Shown here one piece after another: positions 18,445 through 51,800 of a DNA stretch of 64,000 bases (position 1 is its first letter; each line of letters begins with the position of its first letter). The position numbers and the translations under genes are program-made. Under the pieces are notes generated by a model. It ran no database searches and was not told the DNA's origin. It saw only the letters and a list, made by a program, of their open reading frames with translations. Source of the stretch: Perna viridis (taxonomy: Eukaryota); NCBI GenBank assembly GCA_037379345.1, contig CM074521.1, forward strand, positions 25,816,704 through 25,880,703, given 5' to 3'.

Positions 18445-18570
18445 AGGCGGCAAAAAGTCGTAAGTGTGAAATTGATCGTAAATCATGACGTCACAATGCT
18501 GAATTACTTTATGACGTCGTTACTTACGATCAACTTTACACTTACAACTTTTTGTGAAATTGATGCCAGG
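18445..18570. mobile_element. Short palindromic MITE-like repeat; related copy at 26236-26378
   Basis: Self-complementary arms (gtaagtgtgaaattgatcgtaa / ttacgatcaactttacacttac); shared ttttgtgaaatt end and tgac.tcacaatgctg core. Confidence 0.5.
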
Positions 18571-18810
18571 AAACTAGAAGATATGCTTATATAGTATAAG
18601 ATAGAGAAACTGCTCACTAGTGATTTGTAAAAAAAATTACCGTTATTCTGCAATAACATTTTTGTCCAATTTTGGGACATGTGTTCAAGTTGCCAAGTGG
18701 AATAAATATGGAAACAATAATGTGCCACTCTGTTTCTACATTCGTATTAAGCCAAATCTTTACATGGACTACCATAGAAAAAAGAGTAGGGGATAGGCCA
18801 GTCAATTAAT

Positions 18811-19120
18811 TTCAGTTGTCGTTATATAGATGATATATTATATCTGAATAATGCTAATTTCAAGGGTTATACCCAAGTGGACTTAACACTAATATACCCC
18901 TTCTGCCTCATACCTAGACCTTGACTTGTACATAGATGGTACTGGACGTTTGTTATCGAAACTATATTACATTCGTGATGATTTTGACTTCTTAATAGTT
19001 AACTTCCCCTGGAATGGCAATATAACAACATATCAAACCTATGGAGTATACATTTACAGTAACTGTGGTCGAAGCAATTACCATAATTTGTTCAACCGAT
19101 ATGGAGATGCTATCTCATAA
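18811..19120 (+). mobile_element. Second degenerate Penelope-like RT remnant
   Basis: RYIDD catalytic motif at 18820, then SASYLDLDLYIDG.G.L.SKLY..RDDFDF.IVNFP...YGVYI, with frameshifts. Confidence 0.72.
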
Positions 19121-21804: not shown

Positions 21805-21998
21805 CAAGAGTAATCAAGGGAACCAGGTCCGAGCGGTAATTTAAAAAAATACATTCAAAGTTTAAAGTCTAGACAGAGAAAAGAGAAAACACACACACAA
21901 AACAAAGAACATGTCGTACCAATAATATGTATAGCGAAACAAAAATAAATGAGTTACCAGGACTCTACTAAGAATTTGGATCATGGACCGGATGTACC
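21805..21998 (-). repeat. Inverted degenerate copy of the Penelope-like 3' terminal segment
   Basis: gagtaatcaagggaacc...catggaccggatgtaccg is the reverse complement of the 2640-2832 / 6460-6642 segment. Confidence 0.6.
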
Positions 21999-24824: not shown

Positions 24825-24860
24825 GTTTAACGACAACTGCAATCGAGACCACTACGACAG
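24825..24860 (+). CDS. Gene B microexon: Thr-rich ([12 protein letters not shown])
   Basis: cag|GT TTA..., ACAG|gttagt; phase 1-1. Confidence 0.7.
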
Positions 24861-27800
24861 GTTAGTTTAATCAGATACTAATTCTGTGACTATGATATTT
24901 GTTATTGTGTTTTATAAAACATTCATATTGCTTCACACGTCATTTATACGTAATTCTGTGATAAATCATTCATATTCCATTTAATGCAAATAGAATCCCC
25001 ATTTGATTTTTTACTTAAAATTAAAAAAAGACAAAAAATAAACATAATTATTTTTTTCTGTTTTGGAATATATCTTAGAAGAGAAAAAAATGTGCAAAAG
25101 GCACTATCGTACTATTCTCAGGAAATTCTCGTTGGCCTATTATTTATAAAATTCATTTTATACACTATATACAACTACAAACCATTTTGTTTTACAGAGT
25201 TCTGTAGGAACGAGCTTCGAAGTGGAGGATATGTCACCGACGATCAAGTGTTGTTTAGCAGTGCTGGTCCGACATCTGGCGATTCAATGATAAATGGGAA
25301 TGCCTGGACACCCAACACAATAGATCCATACCCGTTCGTAACTGTTGTTTTTCCCGATACTGCAATTGTCAGTGCCATTTTGATCCAGGGTGGAAGTGGA
25401 AGCTTCATGAAGCAGTTCAAAGTCCGAGTACAAAATATTCATAATACATGGGAAACGATTGCGGATGGGGAAGGAAATGCAATGGTAAATTATGTTAATG
25501 TTAATTTGAATTTATTTTGGTCGATATTTGTTCTTTTACACCTTATGATTAGCTTGTTTCCGGTGAGAAATTGCAATATATCCGCAAAATCACAATACGA
25601 CTAGCAGTGCCCGTTAATGTTCTTTTTATAATTCTACCAAAGTACTGACATGTAATAAACGATTTAAATCGACAAACGAAGAGAACGCTAATTTGCTCCA
25701 AAATAATTCAACATAAATTTGTACAAAAGATTAAATTATAAAGACTTCTGTTTACATCCGCATCTTAAATTCAAGTTGACTTTATGATCAGTCAAATGAT
25801 CATTTAAAGCTTTATCTAGTGAGAATATAATGTTATTTCTCAATATGAATTGATAAAAGATATATATTTAGTACAAGAAATTGATTTGCGAATAGCATGC
25901 TATTATATCATTGTATAAATGTTTTCATTAAGACTGTTACCATAACCCATAACACACCAATTTACGATAGCTTTTTCTTAAAGGAATTCGATTTTTGTAG
26001 TTAATAACTAAAAGTTATTTTAAGAATTTTAAATAATCCATAACAAAAAAAAACAAAAACAACAAACAAACAACACCAACAAAACAAAAATTGACAAAAA
26101 AAAAAAAAACAAAGCACGTCTGTTATTATTTTATTTATTTAATTTTTTTATTATTATTGTTACTTGAAAAACAAAAAATAGAAAAACATAACTATTTGCT
26201 AAAAACATCTCCGTAACATCATAAGGAAGCTATCCATGGAGTCAATTTCACAAAAAAAAAGGTATTACTAAGTACACAAATGATCGACAATAATGACATC
26301 ACAATGCTGTCATCTATAATGTCGTCATTAATTACAATTAATTTACACTTAAAACTTTTTTTGTGAAATTTACAACTGAAGGTGAATCACTTGTTATTTA
26401 CAAAAGCAAAACAATTATGAACGATGTTTTCACGCATCGCTTAATCACCTATATAATCAATAATATGGAGTATTAAGTAACATTGCACAATAATTCATCA
26501 GCAGTATAGTACGTTTGAGTTTTATAAATCTTCGAAAAAAAATTCTTAAAAAAAGATTTTCAAAATATTTTAACTTTTCTACTGCAGATCCATTTCTACA
26601 GTACATATAAACTGTGGGGAAAATTTCATAATTTTATCTCCATAAATAAAAGAACTTTCCAATTAGGCTTTATGTAATTTCACTTTTATATATTGCTATC
26701 ATTTTTGTATACCCTAGTATTGTAAGAGCTATTTGAATATTCAAGTAATTTACTAAGTCATGTAACATCAACTCATTTAACTATCTAAAGATGTTGATTG
26801 AACATCAGAAAACAACCTCTATAATGCTGTAATGACACCTATAGATATTCAAATTGCTTGAAGTGACCTAGCTTTATTATGTAGCCTGAGCACAATATTC
26901 GAACAGCTGTTTAAACATTCAAATAGGCAAATTATATTTAGATATTTAAAATCATAGTTGCATTCAGCCTAATGAAAATTTCTTCTGTCTGTCTTGATAC
27001 AATTCTGAAAATATTTCTCAGAGTTCGTATGCACTACAGAAAACCAAACACAGATAAAAAAAAATGCAATATTTCGAAAAATGATTTTATAAGACTTTTT
27101 TTCGAAGATTTAATGAACTATATTTCATTATGTTTGGGCTCCTGTAGCTACCAATATTTTATCTACTGTTTGATACTGTTTTGTTTTACAGATTTTCACA
27201 GGAAGCACAGACGAAAACTCGATAAAAAGTGTCAGTCTACCATCACCAAATCAAATCAACAGTATACAGATCATTCCACTTGACCAAGATATACCAATTG
27301 CTTTAAGATTTGATGTCCTTGGTTGCGTCGTTGGTTAGTTATATGATGTTAAATATATAGAACCAAATCATTTCTACCAGGCAGCTTTCATAATCACCAT
27401 GTTTGATCGCTTGTCGTTTTCCATTTTTTTAACAAACTTTTTTATATTTTGGTATGTCTTTCCTGTATTTTTGTTGATATCACATACTCAATTTAAGAAC
27501 GAAGACTATCAATAAGTTGAACTCACAGGGACTTGAGGTCGTTGGTTAGATACATTAATAGGGCAAAAATTTTACTTCAATTTTTTACATTTTACTATCC
27601 ATGACCATACACTAAAAAACAACAAAGGAAACAGGCCGCCATCTTGGATTTCACTACTCACTTCTCTTTGAATACTAAAACTCTCGGTACATGGCTTATT
27701 TTAATCTATAACAATACAGGAATGAATTCTGTCTCGTTCACAATTACTGTCTTTGATCTTCTCACAGCGGTATTTTCTATAGTTCTTGTACGAAGTGGAA

Positions 27801-30800
27801 AGTTTTCATCAGTTTCGTCGAAAGGAATGTAACTGACGATTCCGTCGTTTTCCTGCATCGTGCAAGGGACAGCTTCGTTGCATTTGGATATAAGTCGCGA
27901 GAGATTCAAGTTTTATTTACCCTTCAAGAATGAACCTTGCACGTTGTTTGATAACAATAACATACTGAATATAGGCCAAGGATGTGCAAGAAAATCTTAG
28001 CAGATAAGACAAACGACATAGATATATTACAGGTTGTAGGGGAACATGTTATATTGACCTGCTCCCCAAGTTTAAGTTCAGATATTTATGACAATCGCCG
28101 AGGCATATTTTAATTTAGGAAATAGTTTCAGTGTCTTCTGTTACTTTTGGTGATAAATTCCAAATATCTCGTGACTTTTCTTCAAAAGCAACGACGCCAA
28201 CCCTTACTTTGCTTTCGACGCAATTGACGAAAACTTTCCATTTCGTACAAGAATTATAAAAATACCGCTGTGAAGAGACCAGAGACAGTAATTGTGAACA
28301 TTCCTGTGCCTTTTAAGATAAAAAAGGGCATATAGCGAAGGGTTCGACTCTAATATTTAGTATTCAAATAGAAGTAGGTGGTAAAATTCAAGATGGCGGT
28401 CTGTTTCTTTTGTAGTTTTTTAATGTATGGTCATGGAAAGTAAAATATAAAACTAGTTTAAATAACATTTTAGTAATTTTTTTCGCATTTTATGGATCTA
28501 ACCCATGACCTCAAGTCCCTATGGTTGAACTTTGATGATAAGAATTGAGTATCTAATAAATATGAACTTTCCATATGCTACTGAACAGTTCTTAATCTGC
28601 AAATGTGAATGAAATGAAATGCCTTACATGTGTGCTACTCTTACAGAAATAAAATACTTCATCTTACATTGCAATATTTTTAATAGTTTTAATGGTTTGG
28701 CATTATTTGGTCAACATCAGATCAAGCACGCGTTGTTGCATTATTGCATTTATTTCTTAATAATTTTATTAAGCCGTGATATTTTTAAAACATTAAAGAT
28801 CAAATTATTATCTAAGCACATTATTTTACAGTCAAAACAACCGCAATACAACTGCCACCGGTAACGACGTCAGTTACTCAACCCACATCAATTCAAACAA
28901 GCGCCACACGAACACCGCCTACAGTTACAACTGCACTGTATTCCTAATATGTCATTGTTTATACTAATCTCGTGAAAAAAGTACTAACTCATTAATATAC
29001 TTTTTTTCAGCCACAACTGTCGCTACACAAACCTCATCAGTTAAAACGTCAGTTGCGCAACCTTCAACTACTCAAACAACCGGGGCACAAACACCGCCTA
29101 CAGTTACAACTGCAGTTGTTTGTGAGGAAGTTGACATAATGGACTCAATTCAAGTAGTGGTTGATGTGAAAAAGAATGGATCACCTATTGATGAAGATAG
29201 AATCAAGACACCCAACGATGGTAAATCCTTGCCCGTAAATCCTGACGATACTTTAGAGTTTATACCTGACTCACCAGCGGAAGTTGATAGCATCACTGTT
29301 AAGGGAGATAACATTAAAACTATAATCGTCACCGTTTACGATGAAGATGGAAACCCATCAACCGTGAGTTGATTTCAAACATACTTTGGTGTATAGGAAA
29401 AATTGAATCATCGTTATATATTCCATTACCACTATCCAATAGGTAACGAAAGTTTTATAGATAAGAAGTTTCAAAAGGTTTGTAAAAGTAAATTATTTAT
29501 ATGGTAGTTATTGTTCGAACTATTATACAACAAGTGTTTTAACAAGGCACATTTTTGCTGTGTATTAATTCTTACAATCGTTGAAGTATGCTGAAATATG
29601 TGCCAAATAATACATCAATACATTTCCTTTTTTTAATATTTCATATTAGCATACGCTAAATCCTGATACAACAATCGACCTAGATAATGTTGATGCAAGT
29701 AAGGTGAAGATTCGATTCGAATCACTTCTTCCAGGAACTCCAATGACAGTTGATGATATTGATCTAGTGATTTGTGAGAAACCAGGTGGGTTAATTTAAT
29801 TATTACTGCTACCTAGGTAAAGAGGTGTATATAAATGTGTATATTTGAAATAAAAATCATCTTTTTTTTACCCCTGAAAATAAAAAAAAGAAGACAAAAC
29901 AGGAAACACAAAGTATTTTTTTAATCCAGCCGTTCATCGGTCCAAAAATTTCCTGTACGTGCCACTGTTTATAAACCGCTAAATTTATTTTATTGAAGAT
30001 TTCAAGTTCAGGTAAAGCCAGGGGGATAATCCTTTTTTTTTAACTTGCTAACATATTTTCTCGTTAATATACAAGGGAAAAAAGAGATGCGACTAGAAAG
30101 TTTTCGTCTAAAATATAATAGACAAAAAAATAAAGCTCAACAAACAATAAACAAGACGAACAATAAACAAGACGAACAATGACAATGAAGGCTTATTGAT
30201 ATATAATTTTATTTAACTTTTCATAAAAAAACAATAATTACTGACATATTAACTATCAAAACTTGCAAATTTACAATATATGCATAAAAATGATTTAAAA
30301 TAATTAAAATAATTGCTTTCCAATCTGATTTGGTACGGCGAGAATGACGCCTTGCTAGTGGGTTCAGGGGGCAGTCGCTAAATACCACATTTTTTTAAAT
30401 TTTGCCGTAAAAACGGAAATTATTGGAACCCCACCATCCTACCTGTTGTACCAGGTGCCACGCTCCTGTGCATACATGCACCATGTACAGATCTCATATC
30501 ATATACATTTCAAATACATGTCACTTATACTATCACGTCGTACGTGTTCTGGTTTTCCAGAGATATTGTACGTCAGGTGTTCTATGTATAAATTTACTAG
30601 ACATTCAGACTTCTTTCTCAAAATCAATTGATCCTTGGTAAAGAAATATTTCAATGACTTGTCTTACATTTCAAAGTAATGTTTCAAAGTGTAAGTTCGA
30701 CTATTCATCATATCATCTATCTAATTTTATTTTACAGTGAAAAGCACATATTATAAAGCAATGGGATCATTTTGAATTTTAAAAATGTCGCTTCCGATTT

Positions 30801-33800
30801 AAATTCATAGAAAGAAAACAAGAAATTAATGTTCCTTAACGAAACAAGACCATTGTTTAAATATTCAAAATCCGGGAACAAATATGAGATTAAGAAATCA
30901 TGCAAATGTCATTATTTAAAAGAATATAGAGAAAAACTAAAGAAATGAGCAAAGTAGACACCACGATAAAGAAAACTAACTAACTAACTAAAACCTCCGT
31001 CATGGATCAGGTGCTCCGGTAGGATTAGGGTCCTATATTGTTATGTTGTTCTAGAAACAACCACTGAGTAAATATTAATAGGATAATTAATTGGAAAGAG
31101 TGAATAACCAAAATATGATCACGAGTGCGGAAGAACGCCTAGATTTAACGAGTGAGCGGAACCGCGCACGAGTTAAATCTTAATGCGTTCTTGGCACGCG
31201 AGTGGGCATATTTTGGTTATTCACGATAACCAATTGATGATCCTTATTTATTATATAGATTTCTTGTATTATTCATTGTTATTTTCAACATTAATTTAAA
31301 ATTTTGTGAACGGCGGATTGATCTGTTCCCTCTGTGACGTTTTGGCGGGAGAAATCGCTAGAGTGAAATTACCGAATTTAATTCAGTGTGAATTATCGAA
31401 AACAAAATTATACTGGGAACATTTTGTAAATCACTGCTATCTATATAATAATATACAATATCCGGGTTAAACGACATTCCAAACTAAGCTAATATCATGG
31501 TGATAACTGATACGAAAAACAAATATTTTGCCAATGTTTTTTGGTGTGTCCACAGTATCGACCGTATCAACAGGGTTAATATTATACCATATCCGGGTTA
31601 AATTAAAAGAAAAACAACGACATTCCTAACAAAGCTGTTATTATGGTGATGACTGATACGAAAAACTAAAATGATCATTTTTCTCCCATGTTTTCTGTTG
31701 TATCCGCAGTATCGACTGTATCAACAGGAACAACTGGAATATCTGGTACTGAAACAACTGTATCGATCCCGTCAACAACACCTGAAGTTGGGGCAACACC
31801 TACTGGCACATCAGCTTCAATAGTTACCCAAACAGCCGGTGAGATATGTTCTCTTAAACAGTGCAGTTACAATAATTTATGAGAATGTGTGTTCTGTCTT
31901 AGTTTATTTTGTACAAATGTAGAAAAGAATAAAATTTCGTTTAACATTGAATTGAAATTTTATTTTCATTCCATTTCATTAATTTGATATCAGTTTTAAA
32001 AACCTATTTATTGTTTTCTGATGACAAAACCTACCAGAGATTCATATAGTTATTTATGGTTTTATTCAATTTTTATACTCTAGTTGCGTACATTTCTAAA
32101 TTTAAGCATCAACTACAGTAAGTGGTCAAACAACACCATCACTTCCACCTACACCTCCTGGTCCATCTCTTACATCAGCAACGACAGGGCCAACTTCAGC
32201 TTCAACTACTGGGATAGGTGTCACAACAGCAGCAACTGGAGCTACAACTGCTGGTACTGGTCCTACTCCAACAGGTACAGGTGCTACCACTGCAGGAACT
32301 ATCAAAACTACAACTGGACAAAGGACAACAGTAGGAACTGGAACTCCTACAGCAGTAACTGGTCCTACTACTGCAGCAACTGGACCAAGTACAACAGTAG
32401 GAATTGGAACATCCACAGCCGGAACTGGACCAACTACTGCAGCTACTGGACCAAGTTCAACAATCGGAACAGCTACCCCTTCAGTGGGAACTGGTTCCTC
32501 TACCGTAGTAACTGGACCTACCACATCAGTAGGACCTAGTCTCACAACAACAGGAACTGGTGCTACTACAGGACGGACGGGGCTTACAACAGTAGCTACT
32601 GGAATTACTACAGTTCAAACGGGATCTACAACAACGAAAGGAGGTGCTGGTGGTACACCTCCACCAAAAATTACATTCACCACTGCAACTGCAAGCACTG
32701 GAGTTACATCTGGGACTACAGGCATCACAGGTGTATCCACAATATCGACGGTCGTTTCTACTGGAGTATCCACTGTGTCAGCAGGAACAACTGGAATATC
32801 TGGTACTGAAACAACTGTATCGATCCCGTCAACAACACCTGAAGTTGGGGCAACACCTACTGGCACAACAGCTTCAATAGCCGGTGAGATATTTTCTATT
32901 GAACTGTACAGTTACAATAATTTATGAGAATGTGTGTTCTGTCTTAGTTTATTCTGTACAAATGTAGTTAAGAATATTTGATTTGTTTAACATTGAATTG
33001 AATATTTATTTTCATTACATTCCATTTAAAAAAAAAGAACACATAGAAACAAATATTTGATATCAGTTTTGGAAACCTATTTAGTTTTTTTCTGATGACA
33101 AAATCTACCATATATTTATATGGCTATTTATGTTTTTATTCAGTTTTCATACTCTCATTTCATACATTTCTAAATTTAAGCATCAACTACAGTAAGTGGA
33201 CAAACAACGCCATCACTTCCACCCACATCTCCTGGTCCATCTCTTACATCCGCAACGACAGGGCCAACTTCAGCTTCAACTACTGGGATAGGTGTCACAA
33301 CAGCAGCAACTGGAGCTACAACTGCTGGTACTGGTCCTGCCCCCACAGGTACAGGTGCTACCACTGCAGGAACTATCGAAAGTACAACCGAAACTGTACA
33401 GACATCAGTAGGAACTGGAACTCCTACAGCAGGGACTGCGGCAACTGGACCAACTACAACCGTAGGAACTGGAACACCCACAGCAGTAACTGGTCCTACT
33501 ACTGCAGCTACTGGACCAAGTATAACAGTAGGAACTGGAACACCTACAGCTGGGACTGGACAAAGTACAACAGTAGGAACTGGAACACCTACAGCTGGGA
33601 CTGGTCCAACAACCGCGGTAACTAGACCAAGTACTACGTTAGGAACTGGAACATCTACAGCTGGGACTGCGGCAACTGGACCAAGTACAACCGTAGGAAC
33701 TGGAACGCCTACAGCAGGGACTGGTCCTACCACTGCGGCAACTGGACCAAGTACAACATTAGGAACTGGAACACCAACACCCGGAACTGGACAAAGTACT

Positions 33801-36800
33801 GCAGCTACTGGACCAAGTACAACAGTAGTAACTGGAACACCTACAACTGGGACTGGCCCAATAACCGCGGCAACTGGACCGAGTACCACGGTAGGAACTG
33901 GAACACCTTCAGCAGCGACTGGACCAAGTTCAACAGTAGTAACTGGAACACCCACAGCAGTAACTGGTCCTACTACTGCAGCAACTGGACCAATTTCAAC
34001 AGTAGGAACTGGAACACCTACAGTAGTAACTGGTCCTACTACTGCAGCAACTGGACCAAGTACTACAGCAGGAACTGGAACACCCACAGCCGGAACTGGA
34101 CCAACTACTACAGCTACTGGACCAAGTACAACAGTAGGAACTGGAACACCCACAGCAGTAACTGGTCCTACTACTGCAGCTACTGGAACAAGTACAACAG
34201 TAGTAACTGGAACACCTACAACTGGGACTGGCCCAACAACCGCGGCAACTGGACAAAGTACCACGATAGGAGCTGGAACATCTACAGCTGGAACTGGACC
34301 AAGCACAACAGTAGGAACTGGAACACCCACAGCCGGAACTGGACAAAGTACTGCAGCTACAGGACCAAGTTCAACAGTAGGAACTGGAACGCCCACAGCA
34401 GTAACTGGTCCTACTACTGCGGCAACTGGACCAAGTACTACGTTAGGAACTGGAGCATCTACAGCTGGGACTGGACCAAGTACAACAGTAGGAACTGGAA
34501 CACCTACAGCTGGGACTGGACCAAGTTCAACAGTAGGAACTGGAACACCCACAGCAATAACTGGTCCTACTACTGCAGCAACTGGACCAATTTCAACAGT
34601 AGGAACTGGAACACCTACAGCAGTAACTGGCCCTACTACTGCAGCAACTGGACCAAGTACTACAGCAGGAACTGGAACACCCACAGCCGGAACTGGACCA
34701 ACTACTACAGCTACTGGACCAAGTACAACAGTAGGAACTGGAACACCTACAGCCGGAACTGGGCCAACTGCTACAGCAACTGGACCAAGTACAACGGTAG
34801 GAACTGGAACACCTACAGCAGTAACTGGTCCTACTACTGCGGCAACTGGACCAAGTACTACAGCAGGAACTGGAACACCCACAGCCGGAACTGGACCAAC
34901 TACTACAGCTACTGGACCAAGTACAACAGTAGGAACTGGAACACCTACAGCCGGAACTGGGCCAACTGCTACAGCAACTGGACCAAGTACAACGGTAGGA
35001 ACTGGAACACCCACAGCAGTAACTGGTCCTACTACTGCAGTTACTGGACCAAGTTCAACAGTAGTAACTGGAACACCTACAGCTGGGACTGGACCAAGTA
35101 CAACAGTAGGAACTGGGACACCTACAGCCGCAACTGGGCCAACTGCTACGGCAACTGGGCCAAGTACAACGGTAGGAACTGGAACACCCACAGCCGGAAC
35201 TGGACCAACTACTGCACCTACTGGACCAAGTACAACAGTTGTAACTGGAACACCTACAACTGGGACTGGCCCAACAACCACGGCAACAGGATCAAGTACC
35301 ACGGTAGGAACTGGAACATCTACAGCTGGAACTGGACCAAGCACAACATTAGGAACTGGAACACCCACAGCCAGAACTGGTCCTACTACTGCAGCAACTG
35401 GACCAAGTACTACAGCAGTCGCAACTGGAACATCTACAGCTGGAACTGGACCAAGCACAACATTAGGAACTGGAACACCCACAGCCGGAACTGGACCAAC
35501 TACTACAGCTACTGGACCAAGTACAACAGTAGGAACTGGAACACCCACAGCAGTAACTGGTCCTACTACTGCAGCAACTGGACCAAGTACTACAGCAGGA
35601 ACTGGAACACCCACAGCCGGAACTGGACCAACTACTACAGCTACTGGACCAAGTACAACAGTAGGAACTGGAACACCCACAGCAGTAACTGGTCCTACTA
35701 CTGCAGCTACTGGAACAAGTACAACAGTAGTAACTGGAACACCTACAACTGGGACTGGCCCAACAACCGCGGCAACTGGACCAAGTACCACGATAGGAGC
35801 TGGAACATCTACAACTGGAACTGGACTAAGCACAACAGTAGGAACTGGAACACCCACAGCCGGAACTGGACAAAGTACTGCAGCTACAGGACCAAGTTCA
35901 ACAGTAGGAACTGGAACGCCCACAGCAGTGACTGGTCCTACTACTACGGCAACTGGACCAAGTACTACGTTAGGAACTGGAGCATCTACAGCTGGGACTG
36001 GACCAAGTACAACATTAGGAACTGGAACACCTACAGCTGGGACTGGACCAAGTTCAACAGTAGGAACTGGAACACCCACAGCAATAACTGGTCCTACTAC
36101 TGCAGCAACTGGACCAATTTCAACAGTAGGAACTGGAACACCTACAGCAGTAACTGGCCCTACTACTGCAGCAACTGGACCAAGTACTACAGCAGGAACT
36201 GGAACACCCACAGCCGGAACTGGACCAACTACTACAGCTACTGGACCAAGTACAACAGTAGGAACTGGAACACCTACAGCCGGAACTGGGCCAACTGCTA
36301 CAGCAACTGGACCAAGTACAACGGTAGGAACTGGAACACCTACAGCAGTAACTGGTCCTACTACTGCGGCAACTGGACCAAGTACTACAGCAGGAACTGG
36401 AACACCCACAGCCGGAACTGGACCAACTACTACAGCTACTGGACCAAGTACAACAGTAGGAACTGGAACACCTACAGCCGGAACTGGGCCAACTGCTACA
36501 GCAACTGGACCAAGTACAACGGTAGGAACTGGAACACCCACAGCAGTAACTGGTCCTACTACTGCAGTTACTGGACCAAGTTCAACAGTAGTAACTGGAA
36601 CACCTACAGCTGGGACTGGACCAAGTACAACAGTAGGAACTGGGACACCTACAGCCGCAACTGGGCCAACTGCTACGGCAACTGGGCCAAGTACAACGGT
36701 AGGAACTGGAACACCCACAGCCGGAACTGGACCAACTACTGCACCTACTGGACCAAGTACAACAGTTGTAACTGGAACACCTACAACTGGGACTGGCCCA

Positions 36801-39800
36801 ACAACCACGGCAACAGGATCAAGTACCACGGTAGGAACTGGAACATCTACAGCTGGAACTGGACCAAGCACAACATTAGGAACTGGAACACCCACAGCCA
36901 GAACTGGTCCTACTACTGCAGCAACTGGACCAAGTACTACAGCAGTCGCAACTGGAACATCTACAGCTGGAACTGGACCAAGCACAACATTAGGAACTGG
37001 AACACCCACAGCCAGAACTGGACAAACTACTACAGCTACTGGACCAAGTCCAACAGTAGGAACTGGAACACCCACAGCAGTAACTGGTCCTACTACTGCA
37101 GCAACTGGACCAAGTACAACAGTAGGAACTGGAACACCCACGGCAATAACTGGTCCTACTACTGCAGCAACTGGACCAATTACTACAGCAGGTACTGGAA
37201 CGCCTACAGCCGGAACTGGGCCAACTGCTACAGCAACTGGACCAAGTACAACGGTAGGAACTGGAACACCCACAGCAGTAACTGGTCCTACTACTGCGGC
37301 AACTGGACCAAGTACAACAGTAGGAACTGGAACACCCACGGCAATAACTGGTCCTACTACTGCAGCAACTGGACCAATTTCAACAGTAGGAACTGGAACA
37401 CCTACAGCAGTAACTGGCCCTACTACTGCAGCAACTGGACCAAGTACTACAGCAGGAACTGGAACACCCACAGCCGGAACTGGACCAACTACTACAGCTA
37501 CTGGGCCAAGTACAACAGTAGGAACTGGAACACCTACAGCCGGAACTGGGCCAACTACTACAGCAACTGGACCAAGTACAACGGTAGGAACTGGAACACC
37601 CACAGCCGGAACTGGACCAACTACTACAGCTACTGGACCAAGTACAACAGTAGGAACTGGAACACCTACAGCCGCAACTGGGCCAACTGCTACAGCAACT
37701 GGACCAAGTACAACGGTAGGAACTGGAACACCCACAGCAGTAACTGGTCCTACTACTGCGGCAACTGGACCAAGTACAACAGTAGGAACTGGAACACCCA
37801 CGGCAATAACTGGTCCTACTACTGCAGCAACTGGACCAATTACTACAGCAGGTACTGGAACACCTACAGCCGGAACTGGGCCAACTGCTACAGCAACTGG
37901 ACCAAGTACAACGGTAGGAACTGGAACACCCACAGCAGTAACTGGTCCTACTACCGCAGCTACTGGACCAAGTACAACAGTAGTAACTGAACAACCTACA
38001 ACTGGGACTGGTCCAACAACCGCGGCTACTGCAGCTACTGGACCAAGTTCAACAGTAGGGACTGGAACACCTACAGCTGGGATTGGACCAAGTTCAACAG
38101 TAGGAACTGGAACACCTACAGCAGTAACTGGCCCTACTACTGCAGCAACTGGACCAAGTACTACAGCAGGAACTGGAACACCCACAGCCGGAACTGGACC
38201 AACTACTACAGCTACTGGACCAAGTACAACAGTAGGAACTGGAACACCTACAGCTGGGACTGGACCAAGTACAACAGTAGGAACTGGAACACCTACAGGC
38301 GGAACTGGGCCAAGTACAACAGCAGGAACTGGAACACCCACAGTCAGAACTGGACCAACTGCTACAGCTACTGGACCAAGTACAACAGTAGGAACTGGAA
38401 CACCCACAGCCGGAACTGGACCAACTACTACAGCTACTGGACCAAGTACAACAGTAGGAACTGGAACACCTACAGCCGCAACTGGGCCAACTGCTACAGC
38501 AACTGGACCAAGTACAACGGTAGGAACTGGAACACCCACAACAGTAACTGGTCCTACTACTGCGGCTACTGGACCAGGTACAACAGTAGGGACTGGAACA
38601 CCCACAGTCGGAACTGGACAAAGTACTGCAGCTACTGGACCAAGTACAACAGTAGTAACTGGAACACCTACAACTGGGACTGGCCCAACAACCGCAGCAA
38701 CTGGACCAAGTACCACGGTAGGAACTGGAACATCTACAGCTGGAACTGGACCAAGCACAACATTAGGGACTGGAACACCCACAGCCGGAACTGGACAAAC
38801 TACTGCAGCTACAGGACCAAGTTCAACAGTAGGAACTGGAACACCCACAGAAGTAACTGGTCCTACTACTGCAGCAACTGGACAAAGTACTACAGCAGTC
38901 GGAACTGGAACTTCTACAGCTGGAACTGGACCAAGCACAACATTAGGAACTGGAACACCCACAGCCGGAACTGGACCAACTACTGCACCTACTGGACCAA
39001 GTACAACAGTAGGAACTGGAACTCCTACAGCTGCGACTGGACCAAGTACAACAGTAGGAACTGGAACACCTACAGCTGGGACTGGACCAAGTTCAACAGT
39101 AGGAACTGGAACACCTACAGCAGTAACTGGTCCTACTACTGCAGCAACTGGACTAAGTACTACAGCAGGAACTGGAACACCTACAGCCGGAACTGGGCCA
39201 ACTGCAACAGCAACTGGACCAAGTACAACGGTAGGAACTGGAACACCCACAGCAGTAACTGGTCCTACTACTGCAGCTACTGGACCAAGTACAACAGTAG
39301 TAACTGGAACACCTACAACTGGGACTGGCCCAACAACCGCGGCAACTAGACCAAGTACCACGATAGGAGCTGGAACATCTACAGCTGGAACTGGACCAAG
39401 CACAACAGTAGGAACTGGAACACCCACAGCCGGAACTGGACAAACTACTGCAGCTACAGGACACAGTTCAACAGTAGGAACTGGAACGCCCACAGCAGTA
39501 ACTGGTCCTACTACTGCGGCAACTGGACAAAGTACTACGTTAGGAACTGGAGCATCTACAGCTGGGACTGGACCAAGTACAACAGTAGGAACTGGAACAC
39601 CTACAGCTGGGACTGGACCAAGTTCAACAGTAGGAACTGGAACACCCACAGCAATAACTGGTCCTACTACTGCAGCAACTGGACCAATTTCAACAGTAGG
39701 AACTGGAACACCTACAGCAGTAACTGGCCCTACTACTGCAGCAACTGGACCAAGTACTACAGCAGGAACTGGAACACCCACAGCCGGAACTGGACCAACT

Positions 39801-42800
39801 ACTACAGCTACTGGGCCAAGTACAACAGTAGGAACTGGAACACCTACAGCCGGAACTGGGCCAACTACTACAGCAACTGGACCAAGTACAACGGTAGGAA
39901 CTGGAACACCCACAGCCGGAACTGGACCAACTACTACAGCTACTGGACCAAGTACAACAGTAGGAACTGGAACACCTACAGCCGCAACTGGGCCAACTGC
40001 TACAGCAACTGGACAAAGTACAACGGTAGGAACTGGAACACCCACAGCAGTAACTGGTCCTACTACTGCAGTTACTGGACCAAGTACAACAGTAGTAACT
40101 GGAACACCTACAGCTGGGACTGGACCAAGTACAACAGTAGGAACTGGGACACCTACAGCCGGAACTGGGCCAACTGCTACGGCAACTGGATCAAGTACAA
40201 CGGTAGGAATTGGAACACCCACAGCCGGAACTGGACCAACTACTGCACCTACTGGACAAAGTACAACAGTTGTAACTGGAACACCTACAACTGGGACTGG
40301 CCCAACAACCACGGCAACAGGATCAAGTCCCACGGTAGGAACTGGAACATCTACAGCTGGAACTGGTCCTACTACTGCAGCAACTGGACCAAGTACTACA
40401 GCAGTCGCAACTGGAACATCTACAGCTGGAACTGCTACAGCAACTGGACCAAGTACAACGGTAGGAACTGGAACACCTACAGCAGTAACTGGTCCTACTA
40501 CTGCGGCAACTGGACCAAGTACAACAGTAGGAACTGGAACACCCACGGCAATAACTGGTCCTACTACTGCTGCAACTGGACCAATTACTACAGCAGGTAC
40601 TGGAACACCTACAGCCGGAACTGGGCCAACTGCTACAACAACTGGACCAAGTACAACGGTAGGAACTGGAACACCCACAGCAGTAACTGGTCCTACTACT
40701 GCAGCTACTGGACCAAGTACAACAGTAGTAACTGGAACACCTACAACTGGGACTGGTCCAACAACCGCGGCTACTGCAGCTACTGGACCAAGTTCAACAG
40801 TAGGAACTGGAACACCTACATCAGTAACTGGCCCTACTACTGCAGCAACTGGACCAAGTACTACAGCAGGAACTGGAACACCCACAGCCGGAACTGGACC
40901 AACTACTACAGCTACTGGACCAAGTACAACAGTAGGAACTGGAACACCTACAGCCGGAACTGGGCCAACTACTACAGCAACTGGACCAAGTACAACGGTA
41001 GGAACTGGAACACCCACAGCAGTAACTGGTCCTACTACTGCAGCTACTGGACCAAGTACAACAGTAGTAACTGGAACACCTACAACTGGGACTGGCCCAA
41101 CAACCGCAGCAACTAGACCGAGTACCACGGTAGGAACGGGAACATCTACAGCTGGAACTGGACCAAGCACAACATTAGGGACTGGAACACCCACAGCTGG
41201 AACTGGACAAAGTACTGCAGCTACAGGACCAAGTTCAACAGTAGGAACTGGAACACCCACAACAGTAACTGGTCCTACTACCGCAGCAACTGGACCAAGT
41301 ACTACAGCAGTAGGAACTGGAACATCTACAGCTGGAACTGGACCAAGCACAACATTAGGAACTGGAACACCCACAGCCGGAACTGGACCAACTACTGCAC
41401 CTACTGGACCAAGTACTACGTTAGAAACTGGAACATCTACAGCTGGGACTGGACCAAGTACAACAGTAGAGACTGGAACACCTACAGCAGGGACTGCGGC
41501 AACTGGACCAAGTACAACCGTAGGAACTGGAACATCTACAGCTGGAACTGGACCAAGCACAACAGTAGGAACTGGAACACCCACAGCCGGAACTGGACCA
41601 ACTACTACAGCTACTGGACCAAGTACAACAGTAGGAACTGGAACACCCACAGCCGGAACTGGACAAACTACTGCACCTACTGGACCAAGTTCAACAGTAG
41701 GAACTGGAACACCCACAGCAGTAACTGGTCCTATCACTGCAGCAACTGGACCAAGTACAACAATCGGAACAGCTACCCCTTCTGTGGGTTCCTCTACCGT
41801 AGTAACTGGACCTACTACATCAGTAGGACCTAGTGTCACAACAACAGGAACTGGCGCTACTACAGAGGGGACGGGGCTTACAACAGTAGCTACTGGAATT
41901 ACTACCGTCCAAACGGGATCCACAACAACGAAAGGAGGTGCTGGTGGTACACCTCCACCAAAAATTACATTCACCACTGCAACTGCAAGCACTGGAGTTA
42001 CATCTGGGACTACAGGCATCACAGGTGTATCCACAATATCGACGGTCGTTTCTACTGGAGTATCCACTGTGTCAGCAGGAACAACTGGAATATCTGGTAC
42101 TGAAACAACTGTATCGATCCCGTCAACAACACCTGAAGTTGGAGCAACACCTACTGGCACAACAGCTTCAATAGTTACCCAAACAGCCGGTGAGATATTT
42201 TCTATTGAACTGTACAGTTGCAATAATTTATGAGAACGTGTGTTCTGTCTTAGTTTATTCTGTACAAATGTAGTTAAGAATATTTGTTTTGTTTAACATT
42301 GAATTGAATATTTATTTTCATTCCATTCCATTTAAATAAAAAGAACACATAGAAACAAATATTTGATATCAGTTTTGGAAACCTATTTATTTTTTCTAAT
42401 AACAAAATCTACAATATATTCATATGGCTATTTATGTTTTTACTCAGTTTTCATACTCTCATTTCATACATTTCTTAATTTAAGCATCACCTACAGTAAG
42501 TGGACAAACAACACCATCACTTCCACCTACACCTCCTGGTCCATCTCTTACATCCGCAACGACAGGGCCAACTTCAGCTTCAACTACTGGGATAGGTGTC
42601 ACAACAGCAGCAACTGGAGCTACAACTGTTGGTACTGGTCCTACTCCAACAGGTACAGGTGCTACCACTGCAGGAACTATCGAAACTACAACCGGAACTG
42701 TACAGACATCAGTAGGAACTGGAACTCCTACAGCAGGAACTGGACCGACTACAGCAGCAACTGGACCAAGTACTACAGCAGGAACTGGAACACCCACAGC

Positions 42801-45800
42801 CGGAACTGGACCAACTACTACAGCTGGGACTGGACCAGGTACAACAGTAGGAACTGGAACACCTACAGCTGGGACTGGACCAAGTTCAACAGTAGGAACT
42901 GGAACACCCACAGCAGTAACTGGTCCTACTACTGCAGCATCTGGACCAATTTCAACAGTAGGAACTGGAACACCCACAGCAGTAACTGGTCCTACTACTG
43001 CAGCAACTGGACCAAGTACTACAGCAGGAACTGGAACACCCACAGCCGGAACTGGACCAACTACTACAGCTACTGGACCAAGTACAACAGTCGGAACTGG
43101 AACACTTACAGCCGGAACTGGGCCAACTGCTACAGCAACTGGACCAAGTACAACGGTAGGAACTGGAACACCCACAGCAGTAACTGGTCCTACTACTGCA
43201 GCTACTGGACCAAGTACAACAGTAGTAACTGGAACACCTACAACTGGGACTGGCCCAACAACCGCAGCAACTAGACCGAGTACCACGGTAGGAACTGGAA
43301 CATCTACAGCTGGAACTGGACCAGGCACAACATTAGGGACTGGAACACCCACAGCCGGAACTGGACAAACTACTGCAGCTACAGGACCAAGTTCAACAGT
43401 AGGAACTGGAACACCCACAGCAGTAACTGGTCCTACTACTGCAGCAACTGGACCAAGTACTACAGCAGTAGGAACTGGAACATCTACAGCTGGAACTGGA
43501 CCAAGCACAACATTAGGAACTGGAACACCCACAGCCGGAACTGGACCAACTACTGCACCTACTGGACCAAGTACTACGTTAGAAACTGGAACATCTACAG
43601 CTGGGACTGGACCAAGCACAACAGTAGAGACTGGAACACCTACATTAGGGACTCCGGCAACTGGACCAAGTACAACCGTAGGAACTGGAACATCTACAGC
43701 TGGAACTGGACCAAGCACAACAGTAGGAACTGGAACACCCACAGCCGGAACTGGACCAACTACTACAGCTACTGGACCAAGTACAACAGTAGGAACTGGA
43801 ACACCCACAGCCGGAACTGGACAAACTACTGCACCTACTGGACCAAGTTCAACAGTAGGAACTGGAACACCCACAGCAGTAACTGGTCCTACTACTGCAG
43901 CAACTGGACCAAGTACAACAATCGGAACAGCTACCCCTTCTGTGGGTTCCTCTACCGTAGTAACTGGACCTACTACATCAGTAGGACCTAGTGTCACAAC
44001 AACAGGAACTGGCGCTACTACAGAGGGGACGGGGCTTACAACAGTAGCTACTGGAATTACTACCGTCCAAACGAGATCCACAACAACGAAAGGAGGTGCT
44101 GGTGGTACACCTCCACCAAAAATTACATTCACCACTGTAACTGCAAGCACTGGAGTTACATCTGGGACTACAGGCATCACAGGTGTATCCACAATATCGA
44201 CGGTCGTTTCTACTGGAGTATCCACTGTGTCAGCAGGAACAACTGGAATATCTGGTACTGAAACAACTGTATCGATCCCGTCAACAACACCTGAAGTTGG
44301 AGCAACACCTACTGGCACAACAGCTTCAATAGTTACCCAAACAGCCGGTGAGATATTTTCTATTGAACTGTACAGTTGCAATAATTTATGAGAACGTGTG
44401 TTCTGTCTTAGTTTATTCTGTACAAATGTAGTTAAGAATATTTGTTTTGTTTAACATTGAATTGAATATTTATTTTCATTCCATTCCATTTAAATAAAAA
44501 GAACACATAGAAACAAATATTTGATATCAGTTTTGGAAACCTATTTATTTTTTTCTAATAACAAAATCTACAATATATTCATATGGCTATTTATGTTTCT
44601 ACTCAGTTTTCATACTCTCATTTCATACATTTCTTAATTTAAGCATCACCTACAGTAAGTGGACAAACAACACCATCACTTCCACCTACACCTCCTGGTC
44701 CATCTCTTACATCCGCAACGACAGGGCCAACTTCAGCTTCAACTACTGGGATAGGTGTCACAACAGCAGCAACTGGAGCTACAACAACTGGTACTGGTCC
44801 TACTCCAACAGGTACAGGTGCTACCACTGCAGGAACTATCGAAACTACAACCGGAACTGTACAGACATCAGTAGGAACTGGAACTCCTACAGCAGGAACT
44901 GGACCGACTACAGCAGCAACTGGACCAAGTACTACAGCAGGAACTGGAACACCCACAGCCGGAACTGGACCAACTACTACAGCTACTGGACCAAGTACAA
45001 CAGTAGGAACTGGAACACCTACAGCCGCAACTGGGCCAACTGCTACAGCAACTACTGGACCAAGTACAACGGTAGGAACTGGAACACCCACAGCAGTAAC
45101 TGGTCCTACTACTGCGGCTACTGGACCAAGTACAACAGTAGGAACTGGAACACCCACAGCCGGAACTGGACAAACTACTGCACCTACTGGACCAAGTACT
45201 ACGTTAGGAACTGGAACATCTACAGCTGGGACTGGTCCTACTACTGCAGCAACTGGACCAAGTACAACAATCGGAACAGCTACCCCTTCTGTGGGTTCCT
45301 CTACCGTAGTAACTGGACCTACTACATCAGTAGGACCTAGTGTCACAACAACAGGAACTGGCGCTACTACAGAGGGGACGGGGCTTACAACAGTAGCTAC
45401 TGGAATTTCTACAGTCCAAACGGGATCCACAACAACGAAAGGAGGTGCTGGTGGTACACCTCCACCAAAAATTACATTCACCACTGCAACTGCAAGCACT
45501 GGAGTTACATCTGGGACTACAGGCATCACAGGTGTATCCACAATATCGACGGTCGTTTCTACTGGAGTATCCACTGTGTCAGCAGGAACAACTGGAATAT
45601 CTGGTACTGAAACAACTGTATCGATCCCGTCAACAACACCTGAAGTTGGGGCAACACCTACTGGCACAACTTCTTCAATAGTTACCCAAACAGCCGGTGA
45701 GATATTTTCTATTGAACTGTACAGTTGCAATAATTTATGAGAACGTGTGTTCTGTCTTAGTTTATTCTGTACAAATGTAGTTAAGAATATTTGTTTTGTT

Positions 45801-48800
45801 TAACATTGAATTGAATATTTATTTTCATTCCATTCCATTTAAATAAAAAGAACACATAGAAACAAATATTTGATATCAGTTTTGAAAACTTATTTATTTT
45901 TTTCTAATGACAAAATCTACAATAGATTCACATGGTTATTTATGGTTGTATTCAGTTTTTATACTCTCATTGCATACATTTCTATAAGCATCAACAACAG
46001 TAAGTGGACAAACAACGCCATCACTACCACCTACACCTCCTGGTCCATCACTTACATCCGCAACGACAGGGCCAACTTCAGCTTCAACTCATGGGACAGG
46101 TGTCATAACAGCAGCAACTGGAGCTACAACAACTGGTACTGGTCCTACTCCAACAGGTACAGGTGCTACCATTACAGGAACTATCGAAATTACAAGAGGA
46201 AGTGGACAGACATCGGTAGGAACTGGAACTCCTACAGCAGGAACTGGGCCAAGTACAACAGAAGGAACAGGAACCTCTACTGCAGCAACTGGAACCCCTA
46301 CGACGGGATCTGGTCCTACTATTGAAGTAACTGGACCTAGTACAACAACTGCAACTGGGTTTACTACTGGATCAACTCCCGTTCCTCCCAGTGAAATCAC
46401 TCAAGCTGGAGTAACACAGCCTCCTTCGGTAACTTTACTTACACCTCAAGGAAGTACAGGGACAATAGGTTCTACCATCGTGACGACTGGACTAACCCAA
46501 ACCAGCAGTGTGTCACTTTCAACATCAGCCACCGCAGGTACTGCAGTAACAGAAAGTAGAATGTGTCGTCTTTTTTTCAGTTTTTTTTGTTTTTGTTTGT
46601 TTGTTTGTGTTAGCTGGCCGGGTGATCTAGGGCACTGGACTTTGTGCAGGCGGTGTTGCCATAGATGTCACAGCGGTATGAGTTCGAGTACCGCGGAGGG
46701 AGCGACCATCGTTGGGAATTTTTCAGACCGTTTTATATATATATATATATAATGATTGCATCGTTTGAATGCTTTCCGGCACAGTCGCCCATCAACTTCC
46801 TGTTTGTCGTGGAGTTTTTTATAAGATTGTTTTTGAAACAGCTTTCAATTTAAATACTTTAAAAGAGATTTGAAGCTCTGTCATTGATGTCACAGGGATT
46901 TTAGACATGTATGATTCTGATGTGTCCAGTTCTGCATGCTTTCAACAAATAATTGCCTTTCATTATCTTTTTATACTTGACAGTAACTACCATACAGCCA
47001 TGTGAATCTGAAGAAGGTATGTCGGACCCAGCACTGATTCCAACAGGGAGTGTCGAAGTCAATCAACCGACCAATACCGACGTCGAAAACATTCGACCAG
47101 GTGGTGAGACTCTTGTTATACCCGATACTGACAACTCTAACCCAATCATAACTATAACGTTAGATTCTAGACCGGAACTTGGCTCACTAAAAATTGCTCC
47201 AAACTCTGATACCAGTAATGTGGATACATTTGTTATAAGTGTAGAAGATATTGGTGACGTCAGTCCAACACAGATTGGGGGTGTAAGTTCATTTTTAAAA
47301 AATAGTAAAAGTTAAAGCAGCGTGCATATCAAACTGTTACAATCGTAGATTGTTTGTTCAGTTCATACTTCAATATTATTATTACGATGTCAGGTATATG
47401 AAGCTCCATAAAGATAATCTAAAACCCGTTGGATTGATTAATTACTCCTTTATTTATTATACATTCTACATAATCTTGATACAATCACAATCAAAGACAA
47501 GACATACATGTATTAATTTTCGTGTGTATCTTGGGAATTTCTTCATGAGCCCTTTAATTACCTTGCTAGCAAGTTGGGATCCTATAGCTGGTTACGCGGT
47601 CTTGGATACACTATAACTTTTTTCCGGTGTGTATTCTAATATCAACTTTTCTTCTCGTATAAAATTAATTTTTTGACTTAGAACGTACTTGATTCTAATG
47701 CTGCTGTTGAAAGATTACTCACTGAAACACGTGTACATGATAACTATAATATGATTATTTCTCATAAATTGTTTTGAGTCAAAGTAATTTTAACTGGTCA
47801 AACATATTCATTCAACTTCAAAAGATTGATTATTAATTTGTGAATAGGTATACAATGGAGATGATACAGTGACCTTTCCATCCGACACATTTGCAGACAG
47901 GGTCATCATCACTCTTCTTACAAAGAATGATCCGAATTCGCCATACTTTGTAGAGCTAGAACTACACGCATGTTTCGCTGGTATGTTTGTGGCTTCGGTC
48001 GATCTCAAAATTTAAACTTTATCTTGAAATAACAATATATCATTGAGAAAATCTAACGTATAAATAAGATAATCAATCGCTAATTGTGAATAACAAAAAA
48101 GAAAATAACTCGTGCCAATAGCACCTGATGATTTAACTCGATCGTACACTACTTGCCGCACTTGTCATAGACACTTTGGTTATTGACTTCTTCCAATTAA
48201 TTATCCTAGCATTATCATTTTATAGTTTAATTAGGGTTTACATTCCGTTCCTGTATATCACTCGTTGTTCTTGTCTCTATTTGCGTGTACTTTGTGTCTA
48301 TTTTGAACCTCTTCAGTTGTCAAATCTTGACTTGCATGTGTATCCACTTTCATTATAAAATGAACGGCCATTATGTATACATACACGAACATATATTCGT
48401 TTATATTAATCATACATGTTTTCCATTAATCATTGTCTCGACGTCCTTCACGTTGTAGTGACTACATGAAATGAAAAAAGTCTTTAAAGCACATTTTTTT
48501 CACTTGTTCTAGAAACAGGAACGAACTTTCAACAACAACGAAAAACGAAAAAAAAGGTTATTGAAAAATAATTTTTCTTCGCATAGGTCCAACGAGTGTC
48601 GTAACTTCGGTTACTGGTGTAACTACAGTACCAACTAGTGTTACCACTGAAATAACAGGAGTTAGCACTCAGATGACAGGTGTAACAACTGAAGTAACAG
48701 GTGCGACCACTGTACCTACAAGTGTGGCTACTACATCAACAGGTATGACCACTGGTCGAACTGGTGTAACTACCGGACCTACTGGTGTAACAACCGGACC

Positions 48801-51800
48801 AACTGGTGTAACTACCGGACCTACTAGTGTAACCACTGGACCAACTGGTGTAACTACCGGACCTACTAGTGTAACCACTGGACCTTCTGGTGTTACAACC
48901 GGACCAACTGGTGTAACTACCGGACCTACTGGTGTAACCACTGGACCTACTGGTGTAACTACCGGACCCACTGGTATTACCACTGGACCTACTGGTGTAA
49001 CTACCGGACCTACTGGTGTTACCACTGGACGTACTGGTGTTACCACTGGACCTACTGGTGTAACCACTGCACCTACTGGTGTGACTACCGGACCAACTGG
49101 TGTAACCACCGGACCAACTGGTGTAACTACCGGACCTACTGGTGTAACCACTGGACCTACTGGTGTAACTACCGGACCCACTGGTGTTACCACTGGACCT
49201 ACTGGTGTAACTACCGGACCTACTGGTGTTACCACTGGACGTACTGGTGTTACCACTGGACCTACTGGTGTAACCACTGCACCTACTGGTGTGACTACCG
49301 GACCAACTGGTGTAACCACCGGACCAACTGGTGTAACTACCGGACCTACTGGTGTAACCACGGGACCTACTGGTGTAACTACCAGACCCACTGGTGTTAC
49401 CACTGGACCTACTGGTGTAACCACTGGACCTACTGGTGGAACTACCGGACCTACAGGTGTAACTACTGGATCTACTGGTGTAACTACCGGACCTACAGGT
49501 GTAACCACTGGACCTACTGGTGTAACTACCGGACCTACTGGTGTAACCACTGGACCTACTGGTGTAACTACCGGACCCACTGGTGTTACCACTGGACGTA
49601 CTGGTGTTACCACTAGACCCACTGGTGTTACAACTGGACCTACTGGTGTAACCACTGGACCTACTGGTGTAACTACCGGACCTACTGGTGTAACCACTGG
49701 ACCTACTGGTGTAACTACCGGACCTACTGGTGTAACCACTGGACCTACTGGTGTAACTACCGGACCTACTGGTGTAACAACTGGACCTACTGGTGTAACT
49801 ACCGGACCCACTGGTGTTACCACTGGACCTACTGGTGTAACCACTGGACCTACTGGTGTAACTATCGGACCTACTGGTGTAACCACTGGACCTACTGGTG
49901 TTACCACGGTTGTCACGACTGGTACTCATTTGTCATTTATAATTCTAAGAGAATATCGATAATTTAAGAATACCCTTTAATTTGTTTTTTTTTTCAACTA
50001 TTCTTTATTTCTCATTTATAGATCTATATATTTATCTTTCAGTTATATATTTTTATTATTATTATTACTTACGTATTTATATAGAAGTATATTTTTAAGA
50101 TGACAAATTGTATGTTCAATTGGCCAATGTTTTACATAGTCATAACATTCAAGGAGCGGGTGGGAAGCAAATAAAGGCATTATAATCAAAATTTCTGGGG
50201 TAAAAATAGTTTTTTTTTCTTTTGAATTTTATTAATTAGATCGAAGATCGGAATTGATCTAGATAGATGGATCTAGAAGTCGCCATAGCCTATATAGTTG
50301 TAAAATCTGTGAGCACTTGCAAATATATTTCACTCCGCCGCGGGAATATAGTTCCACTGACATGCCCCGATAAGGTACCAGTATCGTATTGCATATCCCT
50401 GAGCGGGTGTACGGCAAAACATGGATGCCATAAAAATATAGTGCATTTTCTTTTTGCCTCTCTACAAACTAATGTTTTGTCAAAAGACATGAACAATGAC
50501 TTAAAAAATAGAGCAAACATCACACTGTAAGATGAAGAACTTTTTTAAAAGAAAATCTAACATAATATCATAAAAATGTTCCACTGAAAAGGTTGGTTTG
50601 GTGAGTGCAAAACGAAAGTGAAAGTAGGGAAAATGGCTATTTATAGTTCAAGACTACTTTTCTGTCCAATCTTCGTGGACTCACCCTATTTTCTTTGCGG
50701 GAAATTATTTTTTCACATGTCCTTAGAAATGCTACGTGAAAGTTTTATTGAATCAATTTACATATTTTTTAAAAAATCCTAAAAATATGCACTTCACTAT
50801 AGAAGTCTATGGGAAAATTAATACGATACTGAGACCATAATGTTCAGATGCAACTATGATTAATTAAGTCCCTTGTACAGGTAATTCTAAAATATAAACG
50901 TGAATTTCGTGTTATTTACCCAATAAACAAATCCAGTTACTAGACTAGAAAAAAAAACAGTGTGATGACTTGAAATAAAAGCTTTATTCTGATGAGGGCT
51001 AGAATCGAGGTACCTACTGAGCAGTGGCGGATCCAGAAATTCCAACTGGCCTAAGACGCCTAACTTTTTTTTAGTTTATTGGAGCCCACAGTCGTCTCCT
51101 CTCCCATTGAATCCGCCTATTCTGAACCTGTTTAGAAAGGCCTATTTCACGATCTAACGGTTAGTACTGCTTTGACTCCCTGCACAATCGAGTAATTAAG
51201 ATCGCTTGTCAATTTTTGAAAAATAATGTGACGTACCCATGTAGAGATCGAGTCGATCGATATCCTGGTTGATTTCTTGCAAATATCTTATATGTATAGT
51301 ATATCGTTGGACAAATCCTGGATCACCTCCCTCTACCTCGTGTGTAACATCCTCTTCTAATTTTAGGAACAACTTGATACCAATTTATCTTTTAGAAAGT
51401 AGTGGCAGACAGTACACTAAAAAATTTCCGTTTCACTCCCCGCATTTTTTATCTCCCATCTAAAAATCGTGTAGTTCGGACATACACTTTGCTGAAGAAC
51501 TCAAAAAGTGCATTCCACGGTTGTAATACGAACTATTATTAGTTAAGTATGGTTCAGACATTAGCATATTAAGGCTAAAAACCACTAATTCCACTTCCCA
51601 TAGGCTTCTATGCTAATTTCACAATATTCAATGGCTTCTCTGGACTTTACCTTAACTTTAACCTGCAGAGGACTATATATCAGCATGATTCTACATATGT
51701 CAGCTCACAATCCTCAGAATGGCATGTGGGGTTAGCAGACTTGCAGTGCAGTACTGGTCACCGGAAGTGAAGTGTCTATAAATAGCATGGGAAATCCCAG

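Follow-up and report, generated by a model that had tools for sequence, protein, structure and literature searches.

We analysed a 64-kb stretch of Perna viridis DNA (assembly GCA_037379345.1, contig CM074521.1, forward-strand positions 25,816,704 to 25,880,703), which we call the window; unless another scale is named, coordinates are positions within it. On its plus strand lies an array of six exons (31710..46537) that encodes protein with a high content of proline, threonine and serine (PTS) and is interrupted by five copies of one intron. Judged by the divergence among these copies, unequal crossing-over with gene conversion most likely built the cassette array and homogenised its copies. 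We consider it probable that the exons of an array of this origin are all joined constitutively, within a giant mucin-like protein that we infer to be expressed.

Structure of the cassette array

All six exons (E1 to E6, Table 1) are bounded by AG and GT, have 1-1 phases and are free of stop codons, and the introns between them (I1 to I5, 268-297 bp) are homologous; a first-pass annotation of the window had given the same outer coordinates and the same lengths. The exons sum to 13,380 nt, or 4460 codons, and the other two forward frames of E3 contain 182 and 7 stops. The encoded protein is composed of 39% Thr, 20% Gly, 11% Pro and 8% Ser, and forms a large PTS region that would presumably be O-glycosylated.

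The first-pass annotation had also described a constant head and a constant tail on the cassette exons. Both exist, but they are longer than it stated, with 216 nt in the head (92-99% identity) and about 400 nt in the tail (97-99.5%). Between them lie the cores, of which that in E3 carries internal duplications of up to 1.9 kb. E6 has the most diverged head of the array, as well as two further in-frame donors that would give 567 or 576 nt. A 23-nt relic at 31543-31565, just 5′ of E1, is 87% like the E2 tail, which suggests that E1 may be the remnant of a longer tail.

The cassette acceptors were AAG in five of five cases, versus CAG or TAG at 11 of the 11 other listed acceptors; AAG is the weaker acceptor. 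In all five heads, an in-frame CAG follows 12 nt downstream, so the exons are perhaps 12 nt shorter and the starts given here provisional. A perfect GTAAGT donor-like hexamer also lies 11 nt inside every cassette head (32117-32123 in E2), overlapping the alternative CAG acceptor. In a search of the animal's own genome, the intron family had five copies (a lower bound), all in the array, and again five in 663 kb of sequence. With five copies only, we rejected the idea that the introns are a transposon or satellite family.

Divergence of the copies, origin of the array and splicing

Comparison of the copies revealed a gradient in which the edges (E1, I1 and the E6 head) were most diverged and the centre was nearly identical. 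I3 and I4 were 0.3% apart, I2 was about 4% from both of them (3.7% from I3), and the values were 4.5% for I5 and 13-15% for I1. The earlier description of three central introns as almost identical holds for I3 and I4, but not for I2. Moreover, I5 showed 0 differences from I3/I4 in its first 187 alignment columns, then 13 in its last 104 (Fisher p=9e-7, an optimistic value because the breakpoint was picked after inspection). We further identified a recent tandem duplication, in which 40771-42825 is repeated at 42929-44984 with an offset of 2158 bp and about 1.2% difference. Both of its ends fall inside repeat cores, and the duplication is the origin of E4. The gradient, the mosaic intron and the tandem duplication agree well with the proposal of the first-pass annotation that whole units were duplicated or homogenised by unequal crossover. 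The same argument from an edge-to-centre gradient is given for SOWgp in passages of PMC2576457. Tandem homologous introns, symmetric phase 1-1 units (6 of 6 exons) and signs of homogenisation are traits of a known class, the iterated exon-intron arrays under concerted evolution of which SmPoMuc, MaSp2 and SOWgp are examples, and all are found here in one haplotype.

We take as the copied unit the tail, intron and head together (about 0.9 kb), which sit between minisatellite cores with periods of 21, 45 and 66 bp. Misaligned exchange between the flanking cores would duplicate or delete the unit and, since the exchange would fall within the cores, new 'exons' could arise with cores of any length. 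The 1-1 phase would be expected because one phase-1 intron was copied, with no need for selection for skipping. Variation in length would lie mainly between alleles, through the number of core repeats and the number of cassettes.

The 2158-bp pair differs by merely about 1.2%, which falls within the range of allelic difference in bivalves. The cassettes, or E4 at least, might thus be two haplotypes of one unit placed in tandem by the assembly. We regard such an artefact as highly unlikely, given that the other units are 4-15% apart, with indels of their own and a mosaic, and that the contig is 39.6 Mb long with no N in the array region. In addition, the tail-intron-head stretch was found, at half or more of its words, in 11 runs from four studies, one of them possibly the source and none listed as RNA. 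This match reports presence rather than copy number, and argues against a purely local artefact, though E4 alone could conceivably be a haplotype duplication.

The structure of the array also brings to mind regulated cassette skipping, by which subsets of E1 to E6 would yield mucin isoforms of varied spacer length, chiefly by dropping the 3,000-residue E3. Every array exon has 1-1 phase and encodes disordered PTS sequence, and the cassette acceptors are AAG. Human alternative exons are somewhat enriched for symmetric (49% v 41%) and disordered exons, according to passages of PMC3632108, and precedents for skipping are on record for the chicken MUC2 PTS region, for SmPoMuc and, as a passage of PMC7177656 states, for Xenopus FIM-C.1. 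We nevertheless consider regulated skipping unlikely. The symmetry would be a by-product of duplication and is common to all blocks of the gene. Its four two-exon domain blocks all have 1-0-1 phases and both other PTS exons 1-1, so the symmetric phase, which had been put forward as a trait of the cassettes, does not set them apart. Furthermore, chicken MUC2 yielded only one event in one tissue in the passages of its source.

Nor do the introns carry extra conservation. Synonymous divergence between E2 and E3 was 5.8% in the tail and 9.5% in the head, close to the 3.7% between I2 and I3, a comparison that the first-pass annotation had suggested. Since the introns diverge about as much as their flanks do at synonymous sites, we rejected the idea that they are specially conserved for regulation. 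Skipping or allelic copy number could in principle tune protein length while keeping the frame, and the case for such tuning is weaker than first written. The upper end of the proposed spacer range, from tens to about 4460 residues, stands as the sum of the array exons, but it covers one spacer only, in a gene with 5,575 further PTS codons.

Signs of coding constraint are the open frames of 9009 and 15,390 nt and the tails of E2 and E3, which differ by 7 synonymous versus 3 replacement changes on 120 versus 264 sites. Replacement changes per site were fewer in the older comparisons; in the youngest comparison, and in any that involved E6, this deficit was not clear. Several points weigh against a crossover-built array spliced in one constitutive run. 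The signal of constraint is weak between the closest copies and wherever E6 is compared, with 0 synonymous and 2 replacement changes between the E3 and E4 tails and 5 versus 9 between the E4 and E6 heads. The constitutive splicing is assumed, not taken from transcripts, and the allelic variation is likewise assumed, from one haplotype. The AAG acceptors of the cassettes could favour skipping. Finally, a crude signal scan and a 5′ comparison of three paralogs gave no convincing start or signal-peptide exon upstream.

RNA on 31640-33420 amounted to 0, 0 and 0 reads in three raw runs (19-25% of each run being read) and one 35-nt contig in one contig set, and was uninformative on expression. Of the 15 forward junction classes, 10 are separable with 30-nt overhangs, E3 skipping included. 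Over 75 nt on each side, the junctions E3>E4, E3>E5 and E4>E5 do not differ at all, and E4 skipping is therefore undetectable by short reads.

The host gene and its neighbours

Table 1. Array elements and other features of the host gene within the window
Feature	Position	Strand	Description
F5/8 type C (discoidin)	25198..27333	+	earliest domain recognised in the gene; two exons (25198-25484, 27192-27333), phases 1-0-1
Short PTS + X1	29011..29785	+	Cys-bracketed domain of ~130 aa, two exons, phases 1-0-1
E1	31710..31838	+	129 nt; holds a tail alone, 96% like the others; marks the 5′ edge of the array
Intron I1	31839..32106	+	268 bp; most diverged copy (13-15%), internal deletion
E2	32107..32883	+	777 nt; head, short core, and tail carrying a 12-nt deletion
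Intron I2	32884..33180	+	297 bp
E3	33181..42189	+	9009 nt (67% of array length); core is a minisatellite with 21/45/66-bp periods
Intron I3	42190..42484	+	295 bp
E4	42485..44347	+	1863 nt; product of the tandem duplication
Intron I4	44348..44643	+	296 bp; 1 substitution and 1 indel relative to I3
E5	44644..45696	+	1053 nt
Intron I5	45697..45988	+	292 bp; mosaic
E6	45989..46537	+	549 nt with the first donor; head-only, own 3′ part; 3′ edge of the array
X2	46984..47980	+	two exons, phases 1-0-1
PTS exon	48587..49921	+	single, 1335 nt, 21-bp repeat, phase 1-1
X3	56235..60778	+	exons 56235-56506 and 60628-60778, phases 1-0-1
PTS exon (start)	62584..64000	+	single 15,390-nt exon, phase 1-1, extends beyond the window

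The gene that carries the array reads, in order, F5/8C, short PTS, X1, the array, X2, the 1335-nt PTS exon, X3, the 15,390-nt PTS exon and a block of TSP1, TIL and cystine-knot-like exons, the last lying within about 29 kb past the window's end. Its 16 exons sum to 10,626 codons, with 4,460 in the array and 5,575 in the two other PTS exons, and the array is therefore less than half of the PTS. The F5/8C domain matched Pfam PF00754 with E=5e-06 and 27.1 bits in its first exon alone, just below the 28.2 cut-off. When three exons of the C-terminal block were scanned in Pfam, a C-terminal cystine knot was identified (DAN, E=2.8e-05, over the cut-off; Cys_knot, E=0.005, under it).

F5/8C, TSP1 repeats, TIL and a cystine knot make the gene SCO-spondin-like, and the VWD units and LDLa expected of such mucins were not found in it; nor were the three N-terminal VWD-C8-TIL units that define gel-forming mucins (PMC4948705), with which the gene has a large PTS region and a C-terminal cystine knot in common. 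None of 75 VWD matches and none of 21 C8 matches fell on the plus strand of C11 from 20.1 to 27.1 Mb, both counts being lower bounds, and tblastn with VWD-bearing relatives found no VWD upstream of the gene. VWD and LDLa were found solely in the opposite-strand neighbour, and the gene is therefore more like a 3′ derivative than a full member. On this domain content, the host looks like an SCO-spondin-like mucin paralog, putatively a 3′ derivative of a gel-forming mucin/SCO-spondin.

About 9 kb (16300-25197) separate the end of an upstream paralog from the first domain of the gene, and no start exon was found in this interval; the gene could conceivably serve as an alternative 3′ half of that paralog. 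Other observations in and just upstream of the gene include a 36-nt phase 1-1 PTS mini-exon at 24825-24860, a candidate PTS exon at 28832-28937 that resembles the start of the next exon, lacks a phase-keeping GT donor and has possibly decayed, and a non-coding tandem repeat of about 1340 bp (51570-54720, slightly more than two copies), located in the intron that follows the 1335-nt exon.

These 5′ features raise the question of whether the gene is a headless relic, that is, an unexpressed gene that partially duplicates the full-length mucin next to it (its 3′ half), and in which the array drifts without function. The lack of a VWD or C8 match on the plus strand near the gene, the start or signal exon missing from the upstream scan and the failure of the candidate exon at 28832-28937 to keep phase would fit such a relic. 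However, more than 30 kb of coding sequence in 16 exons is free of stops, and the cystine-knot and TIL exons are only 33-40% identical to those of the paralogs, which therefore points to an old split. A limpet mucus protein with four TSP1 and a cystine knot, and without VWD, is also reported in passages of PMC7333891. We give the relic a very slight chance.

Domain X (29120-29785, 47001-47980 and 56237-60778) is a two-Cys module of about 130 residues with no Pfam family. It shares its 1-0-1 exon split with F5/8C. A HMMER profile of the domain gave 56 protein matches, 10 of which were examined; at least one match (P0016) is an unrelated cadherin/RTX protein. Among these 10, the relatives with a name belong to Mytilus coruscus, M. 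californianus, Potamilus, Patella, Liolophura and Lineus, with the closest from Mytilus. A structural model of the M. coruscus relative, whose second domain had a predicted local distance difference test (pLDDT) score mostly above 90, gave its best matches to the b domains of neuropilin and the C domains of factor V/VIII (E about 1e-7). On account of this fold, domain X is likely a divergent discoidin domain. Atlas scores of domain X to F5/8C clusters were 0.87 and 0.82, and serve as leads only. We also considered domain X as a CysD domain, and rejected this on account of its two Cys and discoidin fold; no CysD match was found on the six domain-X exons scanned. Word-based homolog searches were run with X2, the cystine-knot exon and the E5 tail; of 101, 35 and 77 candidates, respectively, none reached E<=0.001.

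The upstream paralog spans about 170 kb, ends at 16.3 kb of the window (which includes it at 1-16290) and holds about 65 copies of domain X. We identified four arrays in it, with 35 units (about 1.58 kb each), 14 units (1.50 kb), about nine PTS cassettes (about 3.2-4.3 kb) and 14 units (1.5-1.6 kb), in which adjacent units are mostly 97-100% identical. TSP1, TIL and cystine-knot-like exons lie at its 3′ end, and no VWD was found for it. The second paralog, on the minus strand (C11 25.96-26.27 Mb, about 310 kb), runs from VWD-C8-TIL and LDLa exons through to the cystine knot and is a full-length SCO-spondin-like mucin. Its arrays have 36 units of about 2.23 kb, in part 59% identical to M. californianus XP_052090872.1, and seven units of 1.56 kb. 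An 840-bp periodic tract was also seen inside it, at about 160-170 kb on the window's scale. The paralog units that were checked have phase-1 borders.

Compared with these arrays of 7 to 36 units, the present array is the smallest and least regular. The same crossover process appears to have acted in both neighbouring paralogs, where most adjacent units share 97-100% identity, which supports the origin proposed above. No published description of this mollusc mucin cluster was found in titles and the starts of abstracts, with little coverage of subscription literature. With more than 100 intron-exon cassettes and dozens of divergent discoidin domains, the three genes could conceivably use skipping atop copy-number change to give each animal a range of mucin lengths and valencies, the present array toggling a 3,000-residue spacer; we hold this to be quite unlikely. 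If skipping were true, it would test the 2006 proposal that a multi-exon PTS region lets one animal tune mucin length.

Comparison with known systems

The first-pass annotation had contrasted the array with vertebrate gel-forming mucins, which it described as usually holding their PTS region in a single exon. This contrast was overstated, as passages of two sources describe multi-exon PTS regions in chicken. In Muc13 each exon holds a single PTS repeat, and control of length via splicing was proposed in 2006 (PMC1552070); in MUC2 the PTS spans exons 32-45, with one in-frame skip seen (PMC3549977). Both are vertebrate mucins, of the SEA or VWD kind, whose repeat exons are short, and the passages describe no intron homogenisation. 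Conversely, the largest PTS block of the present gene is likewise one exon (15,390 nt). CysD domains are spaced through the PTS of vertebrate mucins, and here domain X takes that spacing. FIM-C.1 is stated to be polymorphic through splicing in a passage of PMC7177656.

Among lophotrochozoans, F5/8 domains are characteristic of mucin-like proteins, according to part of PMC4948705. SCO-spondin-like mucins with domain X amid PTS, as here, are found in Potamilus (KAK3603587.1), Patella (XP_055959230.1) and Lineus (XP_064639835.1), and the Mytilus relatives CAC5405735.1 and CAC5411568.1 (M. coruscus) and XP_052090872.1 (M. californianus) also carry domain X amid PTS. The Potamilus, Patella and Lineus proteins have three VWD and LDLa, whereas none were found for this gene. 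By domain description rather than sequence comparison, the host gene resembles the limpet pedal-mucus protein P-vulgata_6, an SCO-spondin-like protein of 1,860 aa with four TSP1, a C-terminal cystine knot and no VWD listed in the passages of PMC7333891.

The closest likeness in organisation is SmPoMuc of Schistosoma mansoni, a lophotrochozoan mucin in which tandem exon-intron units under concerted evolution make up the repeat region, with variable transcripts and a repeat number that varies between individuals (passages of PMC2576457). As described there, each SmPoMuc exon carries one 27-bp repeat, the units number up to 20 and transcripts vary, whereas the present array has five introns and exons of 0.8-9 kb with a minisatellite, and is known from DNA alone. 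In Argiope MaSp2, iterated introns with a mean identity of 97.6% are reported, unequal crossover is proposed and Flag is cited (passages of PMC9779670). There, too, homogenised introns delimit repeat-containing exons, but MaSp2 is a silk with many regular units, while here the units are few and their cores very unequal. Somewhat fresh are how large the three-gene cluster is and the fact that every cassette has a minisatellite nested in it, and the array offers a clear example of an intron riding in an exonic minisatellite and apparently multiplied by crossover, with a breakpoint visible. Altogether, the array works like arrays of the SmPoMuc and MaSp2 type, and its architecture and the idea of length by splicing are already published.

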